A stretch of DNA of 50,521 nt, filler included, from Bipalium vagum (taxonomy: Eukaryota): NCBI GenBank assembly GCA_037834085.1. It is 3 parts of 3 records of this genome, joined end to end, with 100 filler letters (N's around TTAATTAATTAA, not from the genome) between each part and the next. Parts side by side here need not be neighbours in the genome. Positions count along the whole stretch, not along the records: positions 17,067 to 33,278 come from JBBMKC010122457.1; 2 more parts are not named here. One strand, 5' to 3'. Numbering within the stretch: position 1 is the first letter of the stretch; the number at the start of each line of letters is the position of its first letter. Below, in pieces: positions 2,436-43,266 of the stretch. The position numbers and the translations under genes were made by a program. A model generated the notes under the pieces. That model searched no databases. It saw nothing but the letters and a program-made list of their open reading frames with translations, and was not told the origin of the DNA.

Positions 2436-2663
2436 CTAAATATAGAAGAATTAATCAATTCAAATCTCATAAATTTATCCAAGGTTCGTGTGGTAATATT
2501 CATAGGATTTCAAGAAATTTATTTTAACAATTGACTGATAACCTAGCCAAATGAAATCTCTTAGTGCTTCCATAGTGACATATATATCTAAATTTTCACA
2601 CAAAACAAAAATGATGAGAAAATATTCCTTTAAAAAAATCAATAAACTCAATTAAATAGATTA

Positions 2664-3951
2664 CAGGGTGTCCCATAAGTCCCCACAGAAAGTAAACTTA
2701 AATATTTCTTAAGCAGATTGAGATATTTAATCACTTGCTTTATAAAGTTAATGACAAATCTTTTAATTTTTATTTCATATAAAAATATTTACAACAATTA
2801 TTCGAAATGACTACCATTAACTGATATACATAAATTCATCCTTTTCACAATATTTAAAAATACGCTATTCAAAGTTTCTGTAGTAACAATTTTATTTCTT
2901 CGGTGATTTTTTTTTCAAATCCTCAATATTTTTTATTTCAGATTTTTATATCTTATTCTTTAAATGGCCCCCCTTAAATAGAAGTCAAGAGGAGTTAAAT
3001 CTGATGAAAGTGGAACCAATCGAATTAAACCACCTCTTCCAATCCACCTGTTCGGAAAATGAGCGCCAAGATACCGTCGTACATTTATTGAAAAATGCGC
3101 AGGAGCTCTATCTTGCTGAAATACCAAAGACCGTACTTTGTACATTTTCCTCACTACAAACATAAAATAGTCTTGAAGCATTGATAGATAATTTTGGCAA
3201 TTAACAATCTCATCTTCAAAGAAATACGGACCGATAATTTAATTTTTTGACGAAGCACACCAAACATTTACCTTCTGGGATTTTCTAACAGTTTCAAAAG
3301 TAACATGTGGATTAATTTCTGACCAATATCTGACGTTATGTTTATTTACTAATCTTTTTAAGTAAAACGTTGCTTCATCCTGAATATCCACGTTTTCAAA
3401 CATTGGATCCAGGGATTTGCACATCACAACTCTGTCTTGCAAATCCCCTTCATGTAGTTCCTGCGTGAAATGGACCTTAAAGGGTTTCAGTGATAACTGT
3501 TTTCTCATAATTCGATGGGTTGTTCGCGAAATGGAGCAGGTGGTTGCAACAGTTCGAACACTAGTGGGTCTCTTTCAAATCCTTCACTCATTTTCTGAAT
3601 ATTATTTTCAGTGATCAGCCTTGGTCTTCCAGAACGTTCACGATCTTCCACCGAGACAATCTTACAAAAACCATGAAAAATCTCTCTTATAGCACTTTCA
3701 CTTGGTGAGGTTTTCCCAAATTCGGCATTTAATTTCCGTTTAACAACACAAATTAAGTTGAATTTGGCCATTAAAAGTAAGATTTTGATTCTTAACTTAA
3801 ATCAAGCGGCATTTGATAAATCTAATTTTAAAATATTTAAACAAAACTTAGACTTACATACTTTATTATTACATAAATAGAAATTTCAATCGATTGAATT
3901 TAATGAAAAATATTCTATTTTACTTTCCACGGAGACTTATGGGACACCCTG
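2664..3951 (-). mobile_element. Full-length decayed Tc1/mariner DD41D (rosa/VS-type) element in kinase intron 5
   Basis: TIRs CAGGGTGTCCCATAAGTC / GACTTATGGGACACCCTG with TA TSD. Fragmented transposase with RSGRP, DEATFYL..VNKHNVRYWS and FQQD-41aa-D (RWIGRGG...SSDLTPLDFYL). Confidence 0.92.
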
Positions 3952-5899
3952 TAATATCACATTTCTCATACAGATATGGAGGATTTATTAAATACATTAG
4001 CGTAATCAATAAATAAAAATATTTTTGTGGATTCGTTAATGTTTCATTTTTTCTTGATAATATATATGCTTTACTTTTTAGAATTTTTACTCATCTGGTC
4101 TAGGAAGACTGATCGTAAACCCACATATTTGATTCTTCTTATAGAACCAGATAAATATTCACCATGATATGCTTAATTTTAGCAACTTGTTACTTACAGT
4201 AAAACACTCAATGTGGTTCGTTTTTTATTTGGACCAATGTTCTTATAAAATTTTTTTATTATGAAATTTAAGACTAAGCATTTTTGAATAATTTCCTATT
4301 TAAGTTTCAAAAATATTTCATTTCTTTGACGTTTCTCTTTCATTTCTAAATTTCACCTCTGATTTTTTTCGTTTCGGATTTTTAAAAAAACTATTTTTCA
4401 TAACAAATAATAATAAGTGTAAAAAGGATATTTCCTTTGCAGCATAACAATGTCTGACAAATGTCTAATCGCCTTGCAATATCTGTTTTTTTCAAACGAT
4501 GATGCAACAATTTCCGACTTTCTGTTTGTATTCAATGGCTTTTAATCGTGTCATTATGGTAGATTTATTTACATTAATAACTTGTGACATTGTTTCAATT
4601 GTTTAGGATCGATCTTAGATGTCATCTGAAAATTCATCTATTTTGAATTGCCAAAACCAATTTTTAGTTACCTTCACAAATTTACTTTTTGGAATAAAAC
4701 TAGTCCTATTAAATAGATATGTTTTCGTTTCCTGTACTTAACTAAATAATATACCATTATTTTAACATTTAAATTTTAATACTTATCGATTAATTTAAAT
4801 TATCGATGAAATATTTATTTAATTAGTTAAATAAAACAAAGAGCGAGAAATAATGTAACTGTCTAATATATTATTCCAATTTAATTTACAATATTCACGC
4901 TTTCAGTAAGAATCGTTTTTAATTATACATGTTTCAACATATAATAATTAAATTTATTATAAAGGTTTAGGCTATTTATAATTTTTTAATAATTTTCTTA
5001 AATGATTTTTTACCTACTAGGTTTAATAAAATCTGTAATTAATTTATATTTAATAATTAAAAATTAATTAAAATTATAATATTAATATTTTACAGGTAAA
5101 TTTATTTATAAATAAAGTTACAAATTTTGTCAATCAATATAAATAATATAAACAGGAATTTTTAAAATATCAATTCTTTACTTCGGTCGACTAACATAAA
5201 TTGAATATCCCATATGATCACATAGCTCTGGTCAATAGTGATGAATACAAATTGACATAAATGACTTTTCCAATAATCAATTATATTTATAAAGTGATGT
5301 AATATGAGAGTTAACAAAATGAGATTAATTAATTAATTGCAGCACAAGCAATATTTTATTTAAAATAAAAAGGACCGTTAATTAACTGAATTTATATTTT
5401 ATTACGAAAATGTTAAGTTTTTATTCATAAAAATCTAATAATGGTTTACTTCACATTATTAACAGTAATAAGTCTTTTATGCTAAAGTTTTTCAGGACAA
5501 ATTTGATAGTTTCGAAATAAATTTGTATTAATGACAAACATGACCACATACACTAATGTATGCTTAGAAATGTTGTCATTGGGAAATATCACCCGAAGCA
5601 ACACATCATTTAACCAAATAAATCTAGATATTCATGTTATGAAGAAACAGTTTGAAATTTTACTTTGAGACGTTGGATCATGTTTTTTATAATCGACTTG
5701 GTCAAAAAACAAACTTGAGACGAATCACCAAAAAAATAAAAAAAGCAAATAATTTTCTTAAAAACAAACACATATTTAAAAGCACAAAAATTGACAAAAA
5801 CAAATAATTTTCTATTTAAAAATTTATTAAATAAAAAATTGAATCGCAGTTTATTGATTGAATATTTTGGCATCAAGTTTATTCATTTAGATATAATTC

Positions 5900-7205: not shown

Positions 7206-9041
7206 CTAGATATAACAAAAATTGAAGTTTACCTTCATCAAATATTAATGCTTAATAATCATAAGTTAAAAAGATATTTTGTGAAGACATGTAATTATTT
7301 TTCGGATACCAGATGGGTATGGCTTAAGAAGATTAAGCTACGTTCTAAGTTATTTGTAGAAGACCTGTGCAGTACATAAATTATTTATTTGTCTATTAAA
7401 TTTGGACTATTTTAAAAAAATAAGACTGTCTGTGAATTGGCAGGTGGTAACCAACATATATATCATATCAAAATACTTCAACATAATACTTTAAAAGCAC
7501 TTGTACAATAAGAAATATGCAAGTAATTATAACAACCATTACCATAACATATAATTTTCAACGATATTTAAAAGCTTTCATATGATTTTATACTTAATAA
7601 TTGTATTTCTAAATTATTTTTTTATTTAATAATAAATTATATTTTAATTATTTCAATTAAGTTAAAAAAGTTAAAGCATACTTAAAACATATTCTTAATA
7701 AAGGAGCGACAACCAGAGATTATTGATATTAAAATATAAGTAAATAAAAACCAATGAATTAATAGTGTGTTCTATAATTTATCAAAAATATTATTATGTA
7801 AAATAATAATAATTTTAATTTTAACCAACCAGAATTTGATAAAATATTTTAATTTAAAATTATATGATTAAAATGCTTTATATCAAATATTAATAAATAA
7901 AGAACTGATAAAAAGTTCGACACACGTTTCATAATAATACATTTTTAAACAAATTTTGTTGAAAATTGATGAAAAGCGTTTACTCCAAAAATATTATTTG
8001 TGTTAATTATTAATTTCATTATTAGTAATAGAAAATTTTATTTATTTATTACTAATTTCCGGAATTTAATTATGTTATGTAAGATATTATGTAAAGATGT
8101 TCTGCATACAAAATTTCTATTGCATCCTTTGGTATTTCTTAATTTATATTTTATTTAAATTAATGACAACTGTTTTAAAGTCACTTTTCATTATTTTTAA
8201 AAAATGTTTATATAATTGTTAATAATATATTTAATATTAAAGACGAAACAAAAAATTATATATCCAGAAGTTTTACTGTCTAAAATTAATAAAGAATAAA
8301 TATTATTATAATAAATAATATTATTATTAATTTCTAAATAAATAATTAGATTGGAAAATCGCAAAGATCAATATAGATAATAAAACAAAAATATTTTTAA
8401 AAATATTTTGTTTTTTAATTAATTTAGTCACAGAAGATAAAATAATGAATTGGTAAATTCAATAGCTTTATTTATTTTAATAAATTCTTATCAAACAGGA
8501 TCAATCAATTCTATCTGGTTACATTGATCAATTTATAAACTTATTGGATCATTGGATAAGAAAATTTCAATATTTATTCTTAAGTTTTTTTTTCGTGATT
8601 CTCAACCAAAAATAAATCTCAATATATTTAATCAAAATTTACTCTCAAACTATGGACACATTTCCGGTGAATATTTGACTTTTGAATTAAACATCGCTGC
8701 TTGATCCATATGTTTAAGCACTGTGGTGAAACATTACGAATGTCTAAGCCAAATACATCTTCCATCACACGTAAAGACATATCGAAGAATTTCAGATTTT
8801 TTCACGTTGGCAATTTATTTCAATACTATAATTCTATCATACTTTGGCGAATAGAACCAAAACCCTCATTAGAAATTTTCCACTGTGTCCTGCAGTTTAG
8901 CATTGTTGGCAACAACATTGAAGAGATAAAAAGCTTTCTAACATACCTTTTCGTCAAACCATTTTTTATAATACAAGTAATATTTATGCAGTCTTAACTC
9001 TAAGTTTTTAAGTCAACAATTTTAAGTTGAGTGAAAAGGTA

Positions 9042-9239
9042 CTAGGTCGTCCAAAAATTTTCCGGGGGGAAAAGTTTGAAAAAAATCAAAAAAACTTTAT
9101 TAAATAAATACTTTTAAATTACACATAAATTGATTCCATAAAGTAAAGCCATCATTCTCAATAACATTGAGCCATTCTGCAAATAATCAAAAAAGTTATT
9201 CATTGTTCATACTACCAGGAACCTTTTTGGACGACCTAG
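9042..9239 (-). mobile_element. Internally deleted mariner-derived MITE (198 bp)
   Basis: Perfect 16-bp TIR CTAGGTCGTCCAAAAA / TTTTTGGACGACCTAG with TA TSD. The interior appears to retain a degenerate transposase 3' end on the minus strand. Confidence 0.85.
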
Positions 9240-12200
9240 TATGGTCATTATTCTTATATCACAAATTAAAAGTCGATAACTCAACATGAAAACTTTTTAA
9301 AATTAAAATAATCACCAATCCCGTCAACGATACTTTGTCAACGTTTTAAGTTATTAATATCGTCTTTGAAAAAGTCCTTATCATGTAATTCAACAGGAAG
9401 AACATGTGTTTTGAACATCATCTTGATTTTAAAGCTTTCTATTTTGTTAAATATTGTCAAATGATAAGAATTAATGATAATCTGTGGGAGTTATGTCTGG
9501 GGAAGTAAAATGGGTGCGGTACAGTTTCGTAAAAAGTTCATCTAATTTTTCTAGTTAATTATTGGTTGCAATATTTTATCGTGTAAAAGTAAAGAATGGT
9601 TACGATTCATCAAACCTGGATGTTTTTGCTTTGATTTTTAGTCGCAAGCATCGAGTTTGAGGCAATAGGTTTCCGCAGCTACAGTTTATCTATGTCCCAG
9701 GAAATAATGTTGATTAATATCGCCCAAACAGCTATCATTATCTTAGAGTAATCATTGACTTTACAACAATGAAAAAAAAATAAATAAAAAAGGTTATCCT
9801 TTGTCTATCTTGTCAAAATTAATAATTCTTTTACATAGAGCCTCAATTCTGTTTTTTCCGTATAAAGAAGAAAAAATGTAGAGACGCTGATTTTTGAAAT
9901 TTTCACTTAATTGATATTAGAGTCATTTTTGAAGCTTCTTGACTTTCAAATTTATCGAATATTTTCTTAAAAGTCTGTATATATGAAACCGACAATACCT
10001 TTCCACTAATCTAATATTGTTGGCTAAATATTCTTACAGTTAAGATATCATAAACTGTTTGTTTCAGAAATATATTTTAATTTTTTAAGAGTAAGCGTAA
10101 TCGTCATATTTTGTAAACTGTATTTCGTCCAACTTTTAGAATCAATGTTTTTCAGTCGTATTTTGTTAACGTCACAATGTAGAGCTGCCTCGACTTTATA
10201 CCTTCAAGTCAGTTTTGAAACTCAATAAATTGTGATTGTTATGAATTTTGGATCTATCAGATATGATTTCAGAACTTTTTTATGAATTATTATTAAACGT
10301 GTTCGAACTGCCACTTTGCTTTCGATTAATGGTCATACGTTTCTTAACATGTTTCCTCACTTTACAAGTTGCAAATTTCTCCTCAATCCTTCATTTTTAT
10401 TTATTTGTGGAAACTTAATTTTAATTTATTTAATAATTAATATTATGTTATAAACACACTAAAAAATCAATAAGGTTAATTCATTTTGATTGACTGTCTT
10501 CTATAAATGAAATTATTTAATGGGCACGCCAGATTGAGAATGTTAACTTTTAAATTAAATATTTTATATAAAATATTAATTTAATAAAAATAATATTCAA
10601 TAAATTCCGATTACTAGAAATAAAATATCAATAATTCTTAAATTTAATTATAAATTTGTTAATAATGGAATTTATTAATAACAAATTTCAAATATTTTAA
10701 TTAATAACGATTTTCATTATTTATTATAAATTAACATAAATTATTAATTATCAATAATAGAGTTTTAAAACATTGATTATTTTATTCATTTTCAATAATT
10801 TATTCATTTTCAATAATTAAAATTTCCAATTAATAAATAACTTATTTTTCATTCATAATAATAATAGTAATATAAATAAGGAAATTATTATTATGTCCAT
10901 CATCGTCGTAACTGATTGTTTATCATAACCATTTCAAGTAAACTTACAGTTACAAAAAATAACAGAATTCGGTGTGTTATAAATTATTAAAAAAATTATT
11001 TATTTAAATTAATAGGAGAAAACTCAGGAAATAAAAAACCTGTACTATTATTTATACTATTATATATTTGTAAAATAGAATTTTTATTAATTATTATATT
11101 AATTTATTAATATTAATATTAATTATTTATTAATTATTATAATAATTATTAAATATGCAATACACTTTTTGAAAAACATATCTAAGGACAGAATATTTTG
11201 GTATTGACTTAACAGAATTAAATTACTTTAATTAAATTTCAGATATCTATTGGATTCGTCAACAATTTTTAATATATTAAAAAATCAATATTTATTTTAA
11301 TAAATTTTAAACCAGTTACATGTTTGAGAAAAATAGTAAATTGAATAGTAACTGTATCTAAATATAAATTGGTTTATAGCAATATGAAAGTCTATATAGT
11401 ACGATTACTTGATCTGATCTCCTTTAACAGGAGCAACCGCTTTTGGCTTCAAGAGAAGCCTACCACATGCCCACTTAATTCTTCTGGATCAGGAACCTTC
11501 TCGATCCTGTGTTTCGCAACCAATCATTTTGTCGATTGACTTTTTTATCTTAAACGAAGTCTTTTTCATCGGAGAAGAACTTCAATAGCTCAGGACTATC
11601 ATGCTACATGTTATTGAGTAAAAAATGTGCGTTAAGTTTTCGGAGAAAAGATTTTTAGCATATATTCTATCTTATTGCTACAATAACTGTTAACTTGATC
11701 ATGTTCATTTCCTTTGCTAATTCAATCATATTTTTATGATCCATCAATATAAATCTTATCTTTTAAATCAGCTGAATTGTTGATTCCTTTTTGAATCATA
11801 ATACTTCTTTGTCCAATCAAATATTTTTGGGACGTCCTATATTTTCTTATTATTAAATAAAACTATTTGAACAATTGTCAAATGATATTTTCAAAATTAA
11901 ATAATTTACTGAAGTATACTTTTAAAAATTGAAATAAGATTTTTTTACTGAAAACCTCTTAAGTATATCTGTGCCCCAATACCAACCAAACAATTTTAAG
12001 ATAATAAACTTTTGATGTCAAAGCAAGCTTCACCAGAATAAAGCAAATATTAAAATATCAGTATGAATCAATAAAAACTAGAACCACAACTGTCATTAAA
12101 ACAATATCATTGATAGGAACTGAGATCAATATTTTTGGTATCCTCCAGGCATACTCAAAAGATAATGTTTCAATTAAAACGTTCAAAATTAGACAAGATA

Positions 12201-14425
12201 CTTTAGGAAACTGCTAATACATGTTCATAAATGTAATGATATTGTATATGGTAATATATATACTATGTTTACAAATAAATAGTGCGGGTTTATTTAAATC
12301 GATTCATTGACATATTGTGATAATATAATATATAATATGGACATACAGAATTTTGAATTCGAATTTACTCCATTGTGTTTAAAAAAAAACCGCTCCTTGG
12401 TAGAATAATTATTCAATTTTTCACAAATAGCAACCAGGCTACCCTATCCTAATTTAAAGACAAAGATTTAGAAAAATTATTCCATGAAGATGCCCGTCAG
12501 TCTCGAAAACATACTTATAATAATTGTATTTCATTTTTATTTCGATTTATTATTATATTATAAAAATTATTTTAAAGAGAAGATAAAAAGTTTGCTATTT
12601 CTATTCCATAATATAATGATAGAATAATACTATCCTTAGAAATTAAGTAAAATTATAAGTAGATGAAAAAATACATTATCGATTTTATATAATAAATAAA
12701 AACTTTTTTATCTGCTTGTGTGTCCATCCAAATCTCACACTGTTGCGAATGAAAGATGAGCAAAAAAGAGATTAATGTCATATACATTTCCACAATGAAC
12801 GTTACGAAAGCAACGCGAAAATTTTCCACGACTTTTAATTACTGTTTTGTTTTATTTTCTGAATTCAATCTCTACTGAGGTCTGTGTCAAATAAATCTGT
12901 AAAAAGTGACAATGGAGAATCGGCACGATCAGAAAAATTCCACAATGTTTGTTTCAGTCGAGAGGAGTTGGTCAAATTTACCGAAGCCATTAATTGTCAT
13001 TGTCTGAGAGCGACAAGTTATTGTATTACTATCTAATACAAATATGCTAGTGCTCACCTAATCAATGAAGTAGGAATGGCTTGGTATTATTTATAATCAC
13101 GTTGAGTTGAGAAAAAGTAGGATGAAAACAAACTGCGCTTTGCCTCCTGCTGCCATATATTATTTTTGATGGAGAAAAAGCTACTATTTATTAAATTCCT
13201 GGATCACAGAAAATTATTTTTATTTAAATATGAATTGTGAGAGTAAACCCATTTAGACAGTTAATTAATAGTCAATACCACTATTGTTTCTAAGTAAAGA
13301 CTTAATAAGAAAAAATCGATATTATTCCCTATTTATTTTTATAATATATAACTGATTTGTAGAAAATATTACTCTTAATTGTTATTTCATGAGAAATTTG
13401 AAAAATTGAAACAATAATAATTATTATATTTTATAATTAATAATCAATTATGAAAATTTTATTAGATATCAATTATCAATTGAATCTAATAATTAAAGAT
13501 TGAATTAATATTATATTTCATAAATAATTGTATTAATCAATTAAGTTATAATTTACTAATTTATATAAAATAATTTTTGTCGACTTCCACCATCTGACAA
13601 GAACGTGTCTACACAAGTTCCTGGAAAGGAATCAAAAATCAAAAGGCTAATGTATATAAAACGATAGACTAATTACAATGATTAAATAATAAAATCGTAG
13701 TCTGTAGACTGAAAATAATTTTGTGATCCTTTAAGAAAACTTCGCAAGACAATTTTTATTCCGTTTATTTTTATTTGAGATATATTTCAAAAACAGAGCA
13801 AAACAATAAAAGATGTGAAGATATTCGAATTCAATCAAATTGAAGAAAACCAATTTTTCGGTCTGTATTAATATCGTAGCTTAAATAAAACGTAAATAAG
13901 AAAATAATGTATTCAAAATTCCAAACTCATAATAATAACAAAAATAAAAATATCAATTAATTAGACAGTTAATAAATAATAAACTAAATATATTTATAAT
14001 AATTATTATATATGATTTATATAATATTAATAATAATTAAGCTAATGTGTGGACTGCTATAGCTTTCTTTAAAGCAGGATCATTTCTTATCATTTAAAGT
14101 TAAGTGTAAAAGTAAAATGTGTAAATTAATTTCGTACTCGATACATGAAGACTGTGATTCTATTTTAAATATATATTTAAATCTTTTATTATTGTAAGTT
14201 TCTAGGTCTAAAGTAAAGCAACCCCTTTATCAAATTAAATAATTTATATAATATATAAGTATTCAAATACTAAATAATTAACTTTTATATTTTTATAAAA
14301 GTTATATACCCCTTTTAAAAAATGATATAATTAAAATTATAAATAATACTATTTTATACCTCAAAAAGTAAGCTTAACTTAATTATAAATCATTGTTAGA
14401 GTGAATAAGTAACAAAGCACTGTAC

Positions 14426-16190: not shown

Positions 16191-16239
16191 AAATAGAAAA
16201 TTATTTGTTTTTGTTATTTTTTGTGATTCGTCTCAAGTC

Positions 16240-16960
16240 TCAAGGGCTGGGTATATATTACTTCAACAGGTGGATAAGTCACGTGGACTAAGGTCGGGTT
16301 CTGAGTTGCTCCTCAATGAGTGTTCGATCCATTAAAATCATGATGAACAATACACTGTCTGCAGTGCTTTAGTTCTTCTTGTTTAAATTACGGAGTAATA
16401 ATCTAGCACTAAAATATAGCCCTTTGAGTAATGTGAGAGGAAGGAATATCAACTGTAGGCTCTGCAAAACTACAGTGGAAACACAAGCTCACGTGCTTAA
16501 TCATTGCGTGATTAGCGAAACCCAATCACGTTTTCACACTGTTGTTTGACTTTCTAAAAGACTCGGGATTGGACGTAGATATATGTGTATGTCCTCATGA
16601 GGTGAAAATCACACTACGACCAGACTTAATTGTCAGATTCAAGGACAAGAGAGTTAAAAGTCTCATCGACCTAAAAGTACCATATGACGAGCGGACTAAC
16701 TTTTCTAAAGGTAGAAAGAAAAACCACAATAAATATAAGGGACTCGATCAACAAATAACACTTGTAATGGGATCTGCAGGATCCAACAATAATCAGAGCA
16801 CAGGATCTACCAACAGTGATCAACCTCAACAGACTCAAACCAATGATGACCAACAATAATAACATTTTTGTGATCTGTGATCCATTAACAATATATTTGT
16901 TCTATAACATTGTTTTATTATTGACATTGTGTTATTTGTTATTCTTTTATAATTATTTAG
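16240..16960 (+). mobile_element. RLE-type non-LTR retrotransposon 3' fragment (R2/NeSL-like endonuclease)
   Basis: CRLCKTTVETQAHVLNHC (CCHC knuckle), LRPDLIV...LIDLKVPYD (PD..D.K) and KKNHNKY...VMGSAGS. Ends at an assembly gap. Confidence 0.85.
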
Positions 16961-16966
16961 TTGTTG

Positions 16967-17066
16967 NNNNNNNNNNNNNNNNNNNNNNNNNNNNNNNNNN
17001 NNNNNNNNNNTTAATTAATTAANNNNNNNNNNNNNNNNNNNNNNNNNNNNNNNNNNNNNNNNNNNN
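16967..17066. other. Assembly gap with artificial spacer (44 N + TTAATTAATTAA + 44 N)
   Basis: Seen directly; an identical 100-bp structure occurs at 33279-33378. Confidence 0.95.
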
Positions 17067-18300: not shown

Positions 18301-19509
18301 GTGAGCTGGAGTTGCAAAAATTAGGCAATAACAATACTTGAATAACTTTGGAAATTCAATAAATCAATATAAAGAGCCTTTTTGTAACATTGATAAAATT
18401 GTAAAATATGATTAAAATCTCACAATAATCATTAATAATGAAAGGTAAAAATCGATAATTAAAACTATTTCAATTATTGATTTTATTGAATTATTGAGAT
18501 TATATAAAATCTTGACAATTCCTTATAATAATAGTGAAAAGTAAAAAATATTAATAATAATCAAAAATAATAAAAATAATAATAAAAAAAAATAATAAAT
18601 TAAGTCTATTTACAGAAAATATATTTTCAGAAAAGTGAAAGAATTATGGAGACGGATTTCCTTGCCAAAGGGTGCTCTAAAGAAAATTATGTTGAGGATG
18701 TTGATTTCTATGACACTAGTGAAGATGGGAGGCTGTTTGTGATGCTTGATGTAGCGAGACCGCTCGAAGTGGAAACCCCATACAAACTGTCTTTGACTTG
18801 GGTGGACGCTCACAATGGAACAATGGAGAACTTTATTTTTTTCGATTCGTTACCAAATAACAGTCAGTTATCATTTTCGTTTAACCTCACCGTAATATAT
18901 TATCAGACTGTATAACTTAAAGTTTTCACGATGGTCTCATTTTCAATTTGCAGTCTTCAACATTCTTAACATTCTTCTTAATTTAACTGGTAAATGGTAA
19001 ATATCTTTAACCACAGGTCATTGACTATTTCCTAATCTTTCACACATCTTCTACTTATACCGGGTGTGTGTAAAGTCCATTCGCTATTTTAATAGTCATA
19101 TAATAATCAATGTTTGCAATCTATATTAAAAATCAAGAATCGATTCGTTAGTATTGATATAGTGATTTTTGCGTAGTAAGATGAATATATTATCTATCCC
19201 AAGAATTATCAAAATGATTTCTAGCTTATTCTAATAACTGAAAGATAGGAGTTCAAACCATTTAATTTCAAGCAAAACTTTGTTCCGTGAAACTGGTGAA
19301 GTACCAATGGAAAGTCTTTATGAAGGCAAACCTTCAAATGTGAACGCCATGTGACATTTATTTCACGGGATCAGTACTGGACGAACCAGGAAGTGGAGTA
19401 CACCACATGACAACCAAATATTGTCTTCAATCAGAATTTTGTATGAAGGATATCGAAAATCATCTTTCAGAGAAGTTTCATCTCCACTTAACATAATAAG
19501 AGAGGCCTT

Positions 19510-20060
19510 GAATACACAGGGGAGACACAACATCACCTAAAGACACGAATTATTGAGCATTCTCAAAAAAGTAGAACAAGTAAAATGTTGGATCATACTG
19601 TTAGCTTCAAAGAAAGAGAAGGGAATAAATATGCCAATGAAAATGAGTTTACTGTAGTAATGACCAACTTTGATAACGATGAAGAAAGAAAAATATGCCA
19701 ATCATTAATTAATTAATCAGTAATTAAAAAACTGAAACCAGAAATTCTATTCACAAAATGGAGAAAGTAAAAATCAATGAATGATTAATGTTTTCTTTAA
19801 TTAAAATTTTTAATAAAAAAATAATTTTTAAAAAATAATTAAAAAAAAATATTAAAAAATGGTATTTTTAAAGTTTTTATAATTAAAACGGTTTTTTTAC
19901 TTTTGTCGAATAATAATGCACATAATATTTTAGAATCATGATAGTGATATCACTTGAAGATAGACATTGAAGAAGAATAAAATTGACTGAAGAAGATCTG
20001 AAAAAATAGATCGAAACATGTTTCAAGATAGCAGTTTAAATAAAATTTTTCGTGTTAAAA
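19510..20060 (+). mobile_element. Penelope-like element 3' fragment (GIY-YIG endonuclease end and pLTR region)
   Basis: EYTGETQHHLKTRIIEHSQKSRTSKMLDH...EFTVV...EERKICQSLI...KKLKPEI matches the Penelope pattern YIGET.R.L..R..EH...R.I.ES..I....P. Followed by a hammerhead-like motif and AATAAA. Confidence 0.8.
19983..20026 (+). ncRNA. Candidate minimal type-I hammerhead ribozyme of the Penelope pLTR
   Basis: TTGA-CTGAAGA-A-GATCT-gaaaaaat-AGATC-GAAA-CATG-T-T-TCAA: stem I TTGA/TCAA, core CUGANGA and GAAA, stem II GATCT/AGATC, palindromic stem III, GUU cleavage triplet. Confidence 0.7.
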
Positions 20061-23000
20061 AAAAATATATGTAATTATTCCTCAGTTATTAGAAGATTGT
20101 CACGTAGCAGGGATTTCATTATATAAATAGATGAAGGAACTAGCTGCCTATGAGTTTGACTATAAAAATGTGCTGATAGACAACACTTTTACCTGTAGAA
20201 TACACATTGAATATCGCTGTTTAGTTTTTCATTATTAAATGTCTCTGTTTACCAACCCATCTTTTTTTACAAAAAATTTAAAATAGCTAAGGCGCTTTAC
20301 AGTCACCCGTATAATAAATCTTCTGCTTTCTCCAAACTGTCGTTTGTTTTCAGATTCACAATTCCTTATCCTATACTGCTCTTCAATCTTTCCAGCTTAG
20401 ACTAACCTGATCTTCATCGTATCACCGTAATCAAAATGACAGAATGGTCAGTTTGAAATCAAAGAAATACATTGAAATAAAATATTTATCAAATTATTCA
20501 TAAATATTCATATTGTCACATTTCTCTTTCAGGTAGCGGATTTATAACCGAGGACGTATTGAACTTCAGCTCCAACTCTAACTACGAAGTCGTGCGAAAC
20601 TTTGCACCGGACTTGGACCAGCAAGGTATTTCTTTTCCGTTTCCAATAGTCAAAATTTCTCATTATATCTGCCTTTCGTTATCAAAGTCAGTGTGGGTGG
20701 TTAGAGTAAAATTTTCAGAAAAGGGGGATGTTTTCATGAATGTAAGGTTTTAAAATTCAAGGTAAGAACGCAGGAGATTCGAAAGAATTTTGGTAAATCC
20801 GAAAGAAGTCCTGGTAAAATTTTCTTCGAATTTAATTGGTTGATTGAATTTGATCATCGCAACCGATACTATAAATAGTAATATTAACATGGAAGCTACA
20901 TCATCACCCATCACAACGCTGCTTGTCTCACAGATTGTGCAGATCTCCGAATACGATCGATAATAAAAGAATCGAACAACTTAAATATTATTTTTTTATT
21001 TCTTAATATTTTCCCTTAGCCTTTGAAAATCTGTCTTTTCTCTTTTGTCCGTGGAAGATAGCCTTAATAAAATAATGAAGGGGACTATTAAGGGACAACG
21101 AAGAGTTTAGTCAAACAATTTAATAAATTTATATGGAAAGGTTTTATTTTCAGTTCTCAGTGATTATCAGGACAATCAAATATATCAGACAACGTTTAAC
21201 GCTAACTTAACGGAGAAATTTGCGGTGGTACCGTCTGTGTCGACGAAACCACCAGTCTGGGAAATCGTCAAAAACACGACGACCTTCCGTTACTTACTCA
21301 TTGTAACCAACATTCTCTTTTTGTATTTGATATCTTATCTGACCTCCTAAATTGCAGAAATGTATCCAGATGACCGAGTGTAAAAAGGGTATGCATCCAG
21401 TCTTCTATGTTATTTGTTCAAAAAATGTTTTGGGAAAAAAATTCGTAGAGATAATCTCAATCTCAAAAGAACAGGGTAAAAATATGATTTTGTTGACAAT
21501 CTGTAATCCTGTCATTGCATCCAGCAGGGGCCACCATTATTTCTCAAAACCTCATTCCTGACTCCAGTACGTACACCTTTACAGTCAGCTGGAAAATCAA
21601 TCTTACTACATTGGTCTTGCCGGCCCTGTTTGTCGTGAAAGTGAAGTTTAATAAGTCACAGTGCACTCATCTTTACATTCTGAAGTGCGGAACGTGTAAC
21701 GAAAATTATAAACAGGTAAGAGATTTTTTGGAAGAATCCTTGATTTTGAGACTGGGTACTCCAAGCTAGGACTGTTCTCGACTAAATAAGAAATATGAAA
21801 ATAACACCTTGCTTTTCTTTCTGCAAACGTTTTTCTCCAAGTCTCGGGTCGTCCTCTTTGCATGTGATTTCGTTGAAAATCAAGAGACATGAAAAGTGAG
21901 AGTTATTCTTTTGTCGAGTCTTTGGAAATACTAGACATAAAACTCCTTTTCAATTTTTTCTGCTTACTTTTACAAAGATCGGACTTCTTGTTGAATAAGA
22001 ATAATTTCAAAAGTGAGACTAAATTTCCCAATTCAGAATTGGAGGACCACTTTCTCATTTTTAATTAAGGTCATATGAGAGAACCCACTTCTCATAATTT
22101 CTCAAAAGAAGCAGTTGCCGCTCTCAGAGACTTCCTCAGTCTCTGAACCTCCTATCAAGACCTTTCCAATTTTATCCAAAACAAAATTGTTTTGACTATG
22201 TTCTCTATTTATACATCTCGAGATTCTTTTCTTCATAAAAGGTGCCACTTTCAATTTCTTGTCTCTCCCAATTCTTTGGTAAGTTCGACTTCAGATATGC
22301 TAATCTTCAGGTAACAGAGAGCAACGCAAAGACGAAATTAGATGATTGGACGAAGGAGTGCAAGAAGTATCGAATTCTTGACAAATATTACAAAGCGTCA
22401 TCGACTTCGATTTCTTTTACAACGGATGAAATGAGAGACGAAGAGAACTTTGAAGCTGATTTGATACCTTTCGGCTTAATAAGCAATGGCGAAAAGGTCT
22501 CAACAACACCCAATTTCATTAGACGTAAGCGTTATTGAGATGAAAGAATTTAGAGAACTTTTTGGTTTATTTTTCAGGAGATTTTTGGAGAACCCATGGT
22601 CGCATTATTGGCTTCATTTTAGGTCCCCTTTTAGGAGTCTCATTCCTGGCTGTGGTCATTGTGCTCTTCAGACTCATTAGAAAGAAAAAAAATGAAAAAG
22701 CTATAAAGTCTGACTCCCATTTAATTTTTTCTATTTACAAGTATTTCTATTGGTTAAAAATCTTTTAAAAAGTTAAAAAATGTTCTTAAAGTAAAATTAG
22801 AATTTATCATAACAAGTCTAATCAAATATTTTTAAATTATTTAAATTGTCTTTCTTGTTTTTCAACAATTTTTGCTTTAACAATAATACTAAACACTTTT
22901 TCGTTTTTATTAATTTGATCAGAATATTTTTTAAAGTTTTTGTATTATAAAAGTATCATACAAATTTACAAATAAAAAAGGCAAAATAAAAGAAAATAAA

Positions 23001-24999: not shown

Positions 25000-27900
25000 A
25001 AATAGGTACCTTTGACTCGAAATCAAGAATTACTCATAAAAAACAGTGATTTATTTCAAATAAAAGATATGGTTGTCATTGACACGGGGAAGTTTTTAAA
25101 TGTTTGTCTCTGCTCTCGCTATGAATTTTTTCCAGATATTATATCTGGCTGCACATTTTTCCATAATTGAGTTAATTTCTGTTATTTTAAATCCAAATGC
25201 TCAGAGTTTCTGGTAGTTTGATGGGATCCACGATCCCCCGGCTCAGATTATAAATGTTCTGATATCGTTGTACCATATTCTTCCGAGCTCGGATTGAGCT
25301 TCGTCCAACAAAGTTTGATATTTTTGCTTGTTTGCTTCGTCATTGCCCTTGATAGAAATCTCTGATTCAAAGGGGATTTTGACATCTATTATTAGGAATC
25401 TTTTAAGCCTCTTATTCACTAATTGTATATCAGAAATTAAGTTTTTTCCTGAAAAAATTTCTTTCTTTTCAACGTGTATTTCCCACTCCTTTTTAAGTGT
25501 GGACAGCAAATCAACTAAGATATCGCGAACATCATTGTGCTTTTTTCGTATCATAGGCATTATGTAGATGCAGCTGCATAAGGCGTGTGAGGCAGTTTCT
25601 TCTTTCCAATAGCAATGTCTACAGTTGCCGGCCTTTTTCGATTTTTTATTGGTTGGTAAGTCATTAGTTCGATACTTTTGAATAAAGTACCATTCATCTG
25701 TACTGCACAGATGCCCGTTCATCAGCTTTTTGTTTAGGCGACCATTTAGTACAATTGTTTTTGCCAGTATTCCTGCGCTGCGCAAGTTAGCCTAATTCTC
25801 AAACATCTCTTCCCCGATTTCCTCATGTAATAATGGACATAACAGGTGAGTTGCGAATTAGTCAAAGATTGTCATTTTATTTATAGCTTTGATGATTGTA
25901 ATGATTCCGCTGTTGTTGTTCAGTTGAAAGGATATTGTGGAACTTATCAAAATAATGTACAGCCATGCTAATTTTGTACCACCAGGACCTTTGTATGGCC
26001 TCACTACATGCTTTGTTTAACCAGTCAAAACCCATTTCTGCTGTCGTTGCGTTTTACTGAGACTTTAAGGAATTCAAGGCTAGATTCAACATTTGCTTAT
26101 CTGAGGTGTTCAGCATCCTATGAGCTTGTATGATCGACTGAGTTATATATTCATAAAATGTTGAGATACAACCGAGTCCACCATATTCTACTGAACAGTA
26201 TAAATATCCGATTGGAGACGACGGTGAGTGCGAAAGTAATTCTCGTAGATGTTTCCTAAGAATAAAATCTAGTCCATAATGTATACCTTCACTCTTGGTC
26301 GTAGTTTCAGAGCAATTTAAATATGATACAACTGTTTTATAGTTTCGGAACGCAAAGATTAATTTCGGATGGAGGAAAGTCTTATAGGCTTTTACGGCCT
26401 GCCAGGGATATAGCCCACTCTTGCGTCTTTTGCCCATCAGATTCGTCACTGATTCATAGGTGTGATGAGTGTTCCGCTCAATTTTAAACCCCCTATCTAT
26501 ACCCAAGTATCTGTATCATTCACCAAGTAACAGTATTCGGTATAGGGCTGCCGTTGATGGTTATCTGTCCGATTTTATTCTTAGAGAGATTTAAGAACGC
26601 GCATTTAGAAGCGTTTACTGTCATCCCTGACCACTGGATAACATTAATCACATTGTTCACCATGTTTTACAAATCTCCAATCTTGTTGGCAACGACAGCT
26701 AAGTCATCAGATTAAGCAAGTACTGCAAATTCCAACTGAGGGAATTTTCTATAGTTTTCTGTCACATCCGTATTTATTGTTATATTAAACAATAACATAG
26801 ATAATGGACAGCCCTCTCTTAACGTTTATAGGGTCTGTAGAAATGGTCTCGCAGAAAACTTTGGTTTGGCAATTTTGTTATAAGTCTTTGATTATTTGTC
26901 GTGCATTCTCACCAACTCTGTGTCTTCCTAAGATGTCTAATAAAACTCTGATCGGTACACTTCCGAATGCATCTGCAATATCAATGAAGCAAATAAAAAG
27001 ATCCTCCTTCTTTAATTTAGCTTCCTCGATTTTCAGAGTCAGCATGAAGTTGTGTTCGGAACAGCGTTTAAAGTGCGCTAGTGATTATTGATTTTTGTGC
27101 ATCAACCTCTCTTTCAAAACCTCTCTAACTGTTTGCACAGAATTGACGTATAGAGCTTGTAGCTCGTATTTAGAAGGGCAATCGAACGACAAGCATTGAC
27201 TTTTGAGTAGTCGTCTTTGTTCGGCTTTGGAATTAATTTTTTTGAATATTCTCTCCACAAGTCTGGTATCTTTCGTTCAAGGATTATTGACTGCAAGAGA
27301 TGTTCGTAGATCAGGACTTTTGGGTCAGCAATCCGGATGGCGTTATATATGATCCCATCTGGGCCAGGGGATGATTTTTTGTTTCTGCTTTTCAGAGTTT
27401 GTAGGATATAAACTGCGGTGGGTAGACTAAAGTCAAAATTTTTTTCAGCTTGCTTGATCATTGGAGCAATCGAGAACGACCAGTTAGGTGGTTCTGGGAT
27501 TGTCGATTTTTTCTTGAAGTCCGCCTTTATGTTATCAAGAGTTGGCCATGTCTTAATTTCTGGTTCATCGATGTTTCGTATGATCTCCATCGCTCGTTTC
27601 ATGTTTTTGTTGAACATTACTTTGAGATTTGATGGTTTAGAGTTCCGTGTAAGCCTAAGGTCAGGCTTTTATGCTTTACATGGATTACAGTTCATTATGA
27701 ATTGCTTTATGATCCATATTTTGTTGTTTATTGGCATCGCTAGATTTTTGGTTAACAAACCATGTAATTCTCTGGCTGCTGTTTTCTGCTGCTCATAGTT
27801 CGAGGCTATATGACTGTTTATCTGATTGTAAGGCTTAATATTCCACAAAGTGTCTACAGAAGGGGCTCTGTTTTCATTTAATTTTTTGCGGTACATTTTC

Positions 27901-28555
27901 CCAGAACGTCATGTTTGGTTTCCAGTAATTGTGATGAGGGGGGATTCCTCATCCCAATTTTTTGAATTTTTTCTTTTACTCTCAGCCCGTCCCACTGATT
28001 TGCATCTTTTATTTAATGTTTCATTGCTTTCAACGGATGTCTGCAAGAGTTTGACCCGTTTTATGGGTTTCCTCGGTGTTGAGGTAGAAGCAGTAAATAG
28101 ATCCTGGCTCATTTAGCTGGTTGAAGGAATCAAAACTTGTTGCTTCGAGACATCCAGCGATTCTTCTTCACCTATGATACTATTATTGATTCCGTTTACC
28201 TGATTATTGTTTTGTGATTATGTTGTGAATTTCGTTGGAGAAAAGGGTTGTGTTTGGTTCACTATTATAGCTACACTCAATTGAATCAAAACTCCAATAA
28301 AACCTTATTCGTTCCCAAACTGAATCAAAACGATCACAGTAAACATTTATAAAACGCAAACTTGCAGCGTTACATGTGTCAAAGGAATCTCAATCACTCA
28401 AAGAATCAAAGTTAGTCAAATGTCTAAAAATAATCACGAAGTCAAACTGATCCAATGCCAACGGCTATTCCTTACAATAGCCCATTAATTCTAACTTTAT
28501 ATCCACGCAGAGATAAAGTTAGTCGAAAAGAAATTTATTATGCCGACGACGGGAT
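25000..28555 (-). mobile_element. Near full-length decayed RLE non-LTR retrotransposon (R2-group, NeSL/Utopia-like)
   Basis: Ordered motifs: KSSPGPDGIIY, LIPK...RSIALLNTSYKLY, CSEHNF, FIDIADAFGSV, LA*SDDL, YLGI, YGGLG, CRHC..ETASHALCSC, RKKHN, ISDI..IIDVKIPFE, KQKY, GSWIP.N. Many stops and frameshifts. Confidence 0.93.
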
Positions 28556-32375: not shown

Positions 32376-33278
32376 TTGTGTTGTCCCATAAAAAATGTCC
32401 GTTTTATTCAATAAATACAACACAAAATTTTTATTGTAAACTATAAAATTATGAACTAAAATAAAATTCATCGTTCTCACACACAAGAGCCAAACGTTCT
32501 GCAATTTTGAGAATTCCATTTTCATACCATCCTGGAGATTTAGAGTGAAAAAACACCGATAGGCACTTTTCCAGGTCATCCATGTTCTCAAAGTGCTTTC
32601 TCCGCAAGAAATGTGCCATGGAGAGGAACAAATGGAAGTCTGATGCTGCAACATCGGGCGAGTACGGAGGATGTGGTAAGAGTTCAATTCCCTCAATATT
32701 TTCCAAAGTCTTCATCGATTTCTTTGAAGTATGAGGTTTTGCATTGTCAGCTTGAAATAGAACTCTTTTCCTGTTGATTAAAGCGGGATGTTTTTTGATG
32801 AGAATCTGGTGAAGTCGATTCAATTGTGCAGAATAGATCTCTGAATTAATATTTTGACCAACTGGAAGAATTTGAAAAATTAGAATTCCATTGTAATTCC
32901 AAAACGGAAATCACGTACTTCTTTCAAAATCTATCTACTTTAGATCTGCCATCAGGTGACTCGTTTGCTGATAACCATTGCATTTTTTGTGTGGACTATT
33001 AATGAAGATCCATTTTTCAGCCATAGCGACAATTCTTTGGAAAAAACGCTTCTCTAATGGGTTATCCAACAACCTTTTACAAGTTTGAAATCGTTTATCA
33101 ACTTGCGCATATGTCATCTGATGTCGGTCCACTCGATTGGCTCTGTATTTTTTGCCAGGAGTACGAAGGTGACGATGAATTGTGGATTTTGAATGACCTA
33201 CTTGAGATGATAATTCTCGAGTCGATTGAGAAGGATCTGATTCTATAGAATCCAGTAGATCATCGTCTTTGAAGACCA
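32376..33278 (-). mobile_element. mariner element, 5' end lost in gap
   Basis: RIVAMAEKWIF, FQADNAKPH...PHPPYSPDVAASDFHLFLSM, GILKIAERLALVCENDEFYF; TIR-like TTGTGTTGTCCCATAAAAAATGTCC. Confidence 0.9.
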
Positions 33279-33378
33279 NNNNNNNNNNNNNNNNNNNNNN
33301 NNNNNNNNNNNNNNNNNNNNNNTTAATTAATTAANNNNNNNNNNNNNNNNNNNNNNNNNNNNNNNNNNNNNNNNNNNN
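33279..33378. other. Assembly gap with artificial TTAATTAATTAA spacer
   Basis: 44 N + TTAATTAATTAA + 44 N. Confidence 0.95.
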
Positions 33379-37181: not shown

Positions 37182-38260
37182 TTAAGTTGTTCGGAAATAA
37201 ACTAGTGTTTTATATAAGCCAACTTTCGATGATTTTATTGTATATAAAATACGTATGAATGACATCATATGATATTCCAAATTAATGCTTAGATGATAAG
37301 GATCCATATTCTATATTAATTTGTTTTACTGCTTTAAATTAAAGAATATTTTGGCACAGTTTTAAAAATGTTAAGAAACCAGCAATATATCTCCATAAAT
37401 TTAAACTTGGAAATTCTGCGGCAGATGCAACCAGAAATATAAACAGAACTTTCGAAGATGATTATGTAGCAGAATCAACAACCCGTTGGTGGTTTGCCAA
37501 ATTCCGTCTTGGAAAGTTTGATCTCAGTGATGCAGAGGGTCGTGGGCGGAAAACTTCAGTGGACAATGATGATTTGAAGACAATTATTAAATCAAACCCA
37601 TGGAATACAGTAAGAAATATATCCAAGCAATTATCAGTATCTATTCCATCTGTTTCTCAACACCTAAAGGAAATTGGCAAGGTTAAAAAGTTAAATAAGT
37701 GGATACCGCATTTATTAACTGATTATCAAAAACAAATGAGATATGATATTTGCTTAAAACTAATTCAAAGAAATAAAAATAATCAATTTTTGCGCAGAAT
37801 AATTACGTGTGATTGATCTTTTACGATAACCGTAAACGTCCATCTAAGTGGGCAGATCGTGGTTCAGTTCCAAATTGTTCTCCAAAACCAAGTTTGCACC
37901 CAAAAAAGATTTTGATATCAGTTTGGTGGTGTCAGACGGGTTTGATTCATTACAAATTCCTAAAAAACGGTGAATCAATAACATCAGATGTATATTGCAA
38001 TCAATTGGAACGTATGCATCAAAAATTAAAAGTTTTGCATCCAGCAATTGTCAACAGAAATATTCCAATTTTGCTCCATGACAATGCGAGGCCACATGTC
38101 GCAAAACAAACACTGCAAAAGGTAAATGACCTTGGATATGAGATTCTTTCAAATCCGGCATACTAACCGGATTTATCTCCCACGGATTATTATTTATTTC
38201 AAGCATTACATTATTTCCTGTCTCGAAAGATTTTCAATAGTTACGACACCGTAAAACATG
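37182..38260 (+). mobile_element. mariner DD34D element (cecropia/Hsmar1-like), 3' end missing
   Basis: KKLNKWIPHLL, RRIITCD, PKPSLHPKKILISVWW, LLHDNARPH, PAY*PDLSPTDYYLF; left TIR TTAAGTTGTTCGGAAATAA. Confidence 0.92.
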
Positions 38261-42082: not shown

Positions 42083-43266
42083 TTAGGTGTAGGCATAAGT
42101 TTTAGTCCTTTTTTTAAAAAAATGTTTTTATAAAGGTAATATATATATTTTTAATACGACAGGGATTCAAAAAATCAGTCATCAACATAATATTCATTAT
42201 TGGAAATCCCTTTTTGCCATCTTTCAGGTAATTGCCGAATCCCGGAACGATAGAAAGATATTGGTTTTAACGCAAGATAATTCTTGACAAAATCTCGTAT
42301 CTGGTCAACATTTTTGAAACGACATTCGGCTAATTCATGCTGCTTTGAGCGAAACAAATGAAAATCTGTAGGAGGAAAGTCTGGAGAATAGGCCGAGTGA
42401 GGAAGAACTTCCCAGCCTAAATTTTTTTCCTGAGTATGTTTCGCTACATGCGGTCTGGAATTGTCATCTAACAGGACAATCTTACGCAATCCTTGCCCGA
42501 AAAAAAGTCCTTTTTTCTCGATTTGTTTAGCCAAATGCAGTAATTGTTTGCTATAACGTCCCGCAATAGTAGCTGGCATTCCAGGGTCCACCCACGAATG
42601 GTTGCGTTTTGGATTATTGTAATTAATCCATTTTTCATCTCCAGTGACGATTTTCCATAAAAATTCTATTTTATTAAAGTCTAGCAATAAGGGATGCGCA
42701 TGTTGTTAATCGGCATAAAATATTGCTTTCAGAAAGTTCATGCGGAATCCACTTTCCACCCTTCTGAATTTTTCCCATGTTGTGTAATCGTCTCCCAACA
42801 GTTCTTTGTTCAATGCCAAGTTGTTTAGAAAGTTCTGCTTGCGGCTAGGCTGTATTTTCATGCAGGAGCTCTTCCAATTTGGCTGATTCCAATATCTGTG
42901 GAGCACCACTACGTGGTCGATCGGTAACATTAAAATTTCCGTCTTTGAATTGACGATACCAGTATTTACATGTACTGGGGGAAACGGCATATTACCAGGA
43001 ACGGAACATATTGATTTAAATGCCTGGGATGCATTTTTGCCTTGATCAAATTCATATCTTTTGCAAAATCGAACGTATAATTTTTCATCACTCATTTTGA
43101 AGACTGATATTTTGGTTTTTATAAAATAACTTAAGTATAAAATTAATATATTTATAAAATTTAATATATTGATTACCAATTTAAAATTTCGTAGCAGTTA
43201 TTTGATAATATTTGGACTAGTAAAACAGCGATGAAAATATGGTTTAAAACTTATGCCTATATCTAA
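42083..43266 (-). mobile_element. mariner element (mauritiana-like), both TIRs, internal deletion
   Basis: TIRs TTAGGTGTAGGCATAAGTTTTA / TAAAACTTATGCCTATATCTAA with TA TSD. Motifs YEFDQGKNA, WIPHEL, IVTGDEKWINYNNPKR, DDNSRPH, PHSAYSPDFPPTDFHLFRS, ERWQK. Confidence 0.93.

Follow-up and report, generated by a model that had tools for sequence, protein, structure and literature searches.

A 50,521-nt stretch of DNA from Bipalium vagum (hereafter the window) carries, behind a decayed endonuclease frame and within an apparent intron, a short sequence annotated at first pass as a candidate minimal hammerhead ribozyme, which raises the question of whether it is a genuine hammerhead and whether it could cleave the transcript of the gene in which it lies. 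From the evidence set out below, we consider it almost certain that the segment at 19983-20026 is the minimal hammerhead of a Penelope-like element (PLE).

The segment can be drawn as a type I hammerhead, the parts of which are collected in Table 1. Helix II, which in hammerheads of the PLE kind usually measures 5-8 bp, is closed by the G10.1-C11.1 pair and consists of five Watson-Crick pairs with predicted pair probabilities of 0.95-0.98, to which a sixth may be added through a G-U pair. Since the NUH-type triplet is GUU (20020-20022) with U at position 17, the cut would fall after 20022. The longer palindrome of the region spans not only helix III but also G12-A14, U17, and the first two bases of the 3' arm of stem I. 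An AATAAA, pointed out at first pass as following the motif, is indeed present at 20039, 12 nt downstream, although it is uninformative as a signal because the window holds 3.6 AATAAA per kb and another lies at 19976.

Table 1. Positions, in the window, of the hammerhead motif and of the features that enclose it
Feature	Position	Strand	Remarks	Basis
Gene, predicted single-pass membrane protein	18631-22745	+	Phase-1 introns, TTTCAG-type acceptors, one 53-nt intron	
Likely intron	18863-20532	+	1,670 nt; GT-AG sites; flanked by exons 18631-18862 and 20533-20625	
Older TIR element holding the Penelope piece	19060-20309	.	32-nt imperfect inverted repeats, TA on both outer sides	
PLE GIY-YIG endonuclease frame, C-terminal part	19504-19770	+		phmmer, tblastn, alignment
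AT-rich 3' untranslated end (pLTR)	19771-20062	+	Right end approximate	X1 depth drop, loose ends at 20049 and 20062
Minimal type I hammerhead motif, PLE kind	19983-20026	+	Predicted cut after 20022	Sequence, descriptors, consensus of Fig. S3 in PMC4209133
Stem I, 5' arm	19983-19986	+	TTGA; 4-bp helix I	Sequence
Core (C3-A9)	19987-19993	+	CTGAAGA	Sequence
Core with inserted A	19987-19994	+	A (19994) sits between positions 9 and 10.1	
Helix II and loop II	19995-20012	+	GATCT 19995-19999 / AGATC 20008-20012; 5 bp, 8-nt loop	
Perfect 12-nt palindrome	20013-20024	+	Contains the 6-nt helix III palindrome 20016-20021; predicted inactive trap	
GAAA	20013-20016	+		Sequence
CATG	20017-20020	+		Sequence
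U16.1	20021	+		Sequence
H17 = U	20022	+	GUU triplet, NUH type	
Stem I, 3' arm	20023-20026	+	TCAA; 4-bp helix I	Sequence

Three descriptors of falling strictness (strict, medium, and loose) were run over both strands of the window, and the segment was the sole match on either strand for all three. In a control of 3,020 shuffles that kept the dinucleotide content in 1-kb blocks, none matched the strict or the medium descriptor and 251 matched the loose one; as the descriptors were composed with the motif and the features of PMC4209133 in view, these counts serve as a guide and not as a blind test. Together with the sequence itself, the sole match and the shuffle control bear out the first-pass parse. 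The covariance-model search proposed along with that parse gave nothing, the scan against Rfam returning no hammerhead match either at the gathering score or at E up to 10. Free-energy folding yielded z-scores of 0 to -0.8 and recovered stem II, not the hammerhead; the structure as drawn differs from the predicted most stable fold, and stem I reaches a predicted pairing probability of at most 0.12 in the monomer.

Minimal hammerheads in the pLTRs of metazoan PLEs have been described by Cervera and De la Pena (2014, PMC4209133), and the candidate motif, as read from its sequence, is in agreement at every position with the consensus in Fig. S3 of that study, the 56 motifs of which were tallied by eye. 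The shared features comprise the type I arrangement, CUGANGA followed by one inserted base, the G10.1-C11.1 pair, a helix II of 5-6 bp, a helix I of 4 bp, a palindromic helix III, the NUH triplet, AU-rich flanks, and a single 3' copy behind a 5'-truncated element. The extra A before stem II, taken at first pass for a core variant, is no departure, for a nucleotide inserted after CUGANGA belongs to the definition of the PLE motif and occurs in 54 of the 56 rows, as an A in 30. U at position 17 is found in 24 of the rows, and the 2-nt loop 3 is likewise among the figured variants (Drosophila, rotifer, and Oikopleura rows). What sets the window motif apart is its palindrome, 6 nt long against 4 nt in most of the published minimal motifs and perfect to 12 nt across G12-A14, U17, and stem I. 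A comparison by eye showed this exact extension in no row of the figure, the longest extensions reaching 8 nt (Clonorchis twice, and Tetraodon with a further G-U pair).

According to Table S1 of PMC4209133, 5'-truncated PLEs bearing only a 3' hammerhead are common, and the same report puts lone minimal hammerheads on truncated Penelope 3' ends at thousands per genome. A single motif tested there did not cleave in vitro, and a dimer or trimer showed low activity; a review (PMC6765202) describes the small PLE-associated hammerheads with a short palindromic stem III as needing dimers to cleave. The window motif also resembles the hammerheads of animal non-LTR retrozymes, which, according to a preprint (bioRxiv 10.64898/2026.07.22.740005), are of type I, related to those of PLE pLTRs, and dimer-dependent. 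Unlike those protein-free tandem repeats, the window holds one copy joined to an endonuclease remnant, and the tandem non-coding repeats with a hammerhead in each, by which such retrozymes are recognised, were not found in it.

The assignment of the surrounding fragment to a PLE rests on its homologues. With the frame at 19447-19767 as the query, its two stops written as X, a phmmer search of 1.84 billion representative proteins gave 28 matches at E up to 0.001, the best at 5e-11. When 18 of the phmmer matches were searched with Pfam, RVT_1 was recognised in seven, GIY-YIG (E up to 0.01) in seven, and both in two; the endonuclease remnant of the window itself was not recognised by Pfam, so that its identity depends on these relatives. 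The long homologues are RT-EN proteins of 750-820 residues with a DKG motif and a linker lacking an extra cysteine cluster, and inspection of five of them (P0004, P0009, P0020, P0023, and P0029) revealed no Zn-finger in that linker. In tblastn with 12 homologues, the window was matched only from ~19504 onward, starting at the YIG strand, and no match to the RT or the linker was obtained upstream of that position; the Penelope copy is thus 5'-truncated. A short insertion in the remnant brings an in-frame stop at 19714; conserved residues are changed as well, and the alignment shows the loss of one cysteine that is nearly invariant among the homologues.

The nearest homologues resemble the Penelope/Poseidon clade as characterised by Craig et al. 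(2021, PMC8557442) in having the RT followed by a C-terminal GIY-YIG domain, CxxC...H...H, and DKG, and in an RT-EN linker devoid of the Zn-finger of Neptune and Nematis; frequent 5' truncation and a hammerhead in the pLTR are further likenesses in that account. This architecture of the homologues points to a place for the element in Penelope/Poseidon, as far as sequence can tell; the window copy keeps ~85 endonuclease codons, and the RT, the linker, and the two cysteines are therefore unreadable in it. Neither an upstream pLTR nor an inverted partner copy turned up in the window, and around the piece there was no target-site duplication of more than 5 AT-rich bases. The motif begins 212 nt after the end of the frame, a shorter distance than the ~240 nt initially given. 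All of the above agrees with its earlier description: a type I hammerhead of the minimal form, in pLTR position at the 3' end of a PLE, whose helix III is palindromic and whose cut site follows 20022.

Related PLE loci were sought by a scan with homologue alignments, which provided two loci in metagenome contigs and eight loci (L009-L016) in two assembled genomes labelled as bacterial; the latter eight are likely eukaryotic contamination. A protein scan of viral contigs yielded no relative, and six matches to the core pattern in viral contigs were dismissed as chance after inspection revealed no paired stems. In six of the ten loci, a minimal hammerhead follows the endonuclease on the sense strand, and these six amount to five distinct families, as L015 and L016 are identical at the motif. 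All six have a 4-bp stem I, the palindrome, a helix II of 3-7 bp, and the inserted base, which is A in four and T in two. Their stem sequences differ while the pairing is kept, as tabulated from the descriptor parse. The remaining four loci (L010, L011, L013, and L014) are without a convincing motif: L010 and L011 are one rearranged family, L013 belongs to the family of L015/L016 and diverges where the motif starts, and L014 was matched by its RT only. A weak minus-strand match in L011, with 2-bp stems, was excluded before this count. The eight loci L009-L016, five if none is counted twice, supply three hammerhead families. L009, L010, and L011 show the inverted duplicate arrangements typical of PLEs.

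To follow the family within sequencing data, four of the 24 runs listed (X1, X2, X4, and X24) were compared over 19900-20200, with X1 at 80% likeness. X1 (56% of sampled words) may be the source of the window itself and is for that reason not independent. In this run, 411 contigs match the interval, and their summed depth, which is not a copy number, amounts to 76,368 at the motif, 8,000-13,000 in the upstream flank, and 20-40 beyond 20065. They do show that the element is a multi-copy family, probably of hundreds to a few thousand members, that ends near 20062. Eleven sites vary among the contigs at a level of at least 5%, three of them in loop II (20003, 20004, and 20007) and eight in the flanks, while the 36 positions of core and stems are free of them (P = 0.03 under random placement, with the caveat that matching favours contigs similar to the conserved part). 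The invariant core across the family argues that the motif matters to the element, and the expectation that genomic copies should keep the core and the stem pairing was upheld at this level of variation. As to covariation, the stems differ and still pair across six families; among the copies of the one family in X1, no pair had changed in a compensatory way. The 12-nt palindrome is likewise free of variants at or above 5% in X1, its extension being family-wide, and since no other letter reaches that level at 20022, U17 is not a decay mutation of the window copy.

Compared with the X1 majority, the window copy has 8 differences in ~136 places, none at the 36 core and stem positions. The chance of such an outcome is P = 0.08 for the 8 sites and 0.21 for the 5 near-private ones, so that an intact core in a dead copy needs no selection by the host. 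The contrast drawn at first pass between an intact core and a dead coding part accordingly stands as a description, every core base being present, but loses its surprise. X2, from a second organism, contributed three contigs: one without a listed core change, one decayed with several core changes, and one of 65 nt (depth 3.8) with a head-to-tail 35-nt duplication whose joint runs from 20022 to 19988. This joint was rejected as a sign of cleavage, because both places share a near-identical word of 6-7 bases, the contig is a single one, and ligated cleavage products would not give such a joint. In the RNA-labelled runs X4 and X24, matches were confined to a 35-nt, AT-rich stretch that lies outside the motif, and these runs are uninformative on transcription either way.

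The extended palindrome provides a competing fold. In the modelled dimers, the palindrome-paired form lies at -25.4 kcal/mol and the active form at -13.0 kcal/mol, a gap of 12.4 kcal/mol; the 12-bp pairing has a probability above 0.99, and that of stem I in trans is 0.0. Within the monomer, the trap pairs reach probabilities of 0.3-0.6, compared with the low value for stem I given above. The palindrome is thus predicted by the fold model to trap both monomer and dimer in an inactive structure. Among the five other families, where the palindrome measures 4-6 nt, the corresponding trap lies below the active dimer by at most 2.6 kcal/mol, and in three of the five the co-fold minimum is likewise far below the active dimer. 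As the energies ignore tertiary contacts and Mg2+, and the other families misfold too, the misfolding prediction is weak when taken by itself.

The Penelope piece is itself enclosed in an older element, with inverted repeat arms at 19061-19092 and 20278-20309 that are 81% complementary, and this element is, to judge from its sequence, likely a decayed Tc1/mariner. A stretch in it resembles, by eye, what we take to be the N-terminus of a transposase; Pfam found no transposase there, and an alignment to another mariner-like copy of the window was unconvincing. Over 20065-20200, the element is low in copy in X1. At 2660-3955 on the minus strand lies a near full-length Tc1/mariner-like copy, the inverted ends of which measure 48 nt (85% complementary) and the transposase frame of which is broken; further frames near 32449-33330, 37343-38166, and 42175-43197 are presumably mariner-like from their motifs. 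Broken frames at ~25240-28430 (minus strand) and 16200-16860 we assume to be of R2/NeSL-like non-LTR origin, with an RT and a restriction-like endonuclease; Pfam gave no significant match on four of these frames. Part of 28247-28423 is repeated ~1.5 kb downstream, and the segments 16967-17066 and 33279-33378 show identical masked-run patterns around a short AT palindrome, which are likely masking or assembly artefacts.

Around this region, an open frame runs through three candidate exons bounded by GT-AG sites. When 13 GT donors were tried, the frame stayed open with 2, and the sequence at 18863 is the better donor of these. One of the later exons codes for a run of hydrophobic residues with basic ones behind it. 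A search with the first exon among longer proteins brought up 28 candidates but no relative, all of them lying above E 1. On this gene model, the hammerhead likely lies in sense within a 1.67-kb host intron, as had been proposed. Elsewhere, at 2180-2509 on the minus strand, the window holds an exon or a fragment of a protein kinase (Pkinase at E 1.9e-06, which falls short of the curated cut-off).

With these data in hand, the alternatives can be weighed. That the motif might be a chance match in AT-rich DNA is suggested by the silence of Rfam, by the folding z-scores, and by the 251 shuffled windows that satisfy the loose descriptor. Against this, the descriptors that demand features really present were never satisfied by a shuffle, five other PLE families have the same anatomy at the same position, and conservation across the family peaks at the motif; we regard a chance match as refuted on these grounds, its probability being practically nil. 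A different alternative accepts the hammerhead and holds that the 12-nt palindrome is itself selected, as a lock on the ribozyme or as a signal for RNA dimerisation, cleavage being protein-dependent or never taking place; the family would then carry, in place of a free-running ribozyme, a signal for dimerisation or a switch that a protein releases. Such a role would fit the invariance of the palindrome among the X1 contigs, its length and trap gap relative to the five other families, and its absence in full from the 56 published motifs, three of which reach 8 nt. The invariance is nevertheless no separate signal, because each base is already constrained as core or stem I; U17 is common among the published rows, two more matching bases would arise by chance in a few percent of families, which would explain the extension, and no compensatory change was seen within it. 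From the modelled energies and these considerations, a built-in, selected lock appears unlikely, though it can coexist with the explanation that we prefer.

Less probable again is that the motif cuts the host pre-mRNA to a meaningful extent, pairing in trans through its palindrome with transcripts of other family copies or of the same gene, and so lowering or reshaping the expression of the host gene. Its sense orientation in a likely intron, the intactness of every core base, the existence of a multi-copy family that could furnish partners in trans, and the strong predicted intermolecular pairing of the palindrome all speak for it, and the 6-nt length of the helix III palindrome could favour dimers. 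The predicted dimer is, however, the 12-bp inactive form, cleavage in vitro was poor even for tandem dimers of this class in the experiments of PMC4209133, the intactness lies within neutral expectation, and the RNA-labelled runs matched only outside the motif. Because no second motif was found in the window and because the predicted competing fold ties up G12-A14 in pairs with U17 and stem I, the pre-mRNA is expected to undergo negligible cleavage before it is spliced, and an effect on the host gene would be quite improbable.

The explanation that we prefer, and consider highly probable, is that of a standard PLE minimal hammerhead that is a passive passenger of the host intron and essentially inactive on the host transcript. 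In an active element, helix III would be built from the 6-nt palindromes of two copies of the motif, stem I would form between these copies, and each RNA would be cut after U17; this dimer model of cleavage is a published one, and dimers of this type are reported to cleave weakly (PMC4209133, PMC6765202). The window copy may have arisen by a reverse transcription that stopped ~560 nt from the 3' end and have landed in the older TIR element within the intron, since when it would have drifted by ~4-6%, the changes sparing by chance the 36 positions of core and stems.

The motif is therefore of a well-described kind, and by itself the copy in the window matters little; a lone motif that cut the pre-mRNA of a host gene would be a novelty, and nothing here points there. 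The role of PLE hammerheads in the life cycle of the element is described as an open question in PMC8557442. A multi-copy family with a predicted self-lock offers a cheap test of whether cleavage is what is conserved, and, should the lock prove true, the family would be a natural test case for what PLE hammerheads do.
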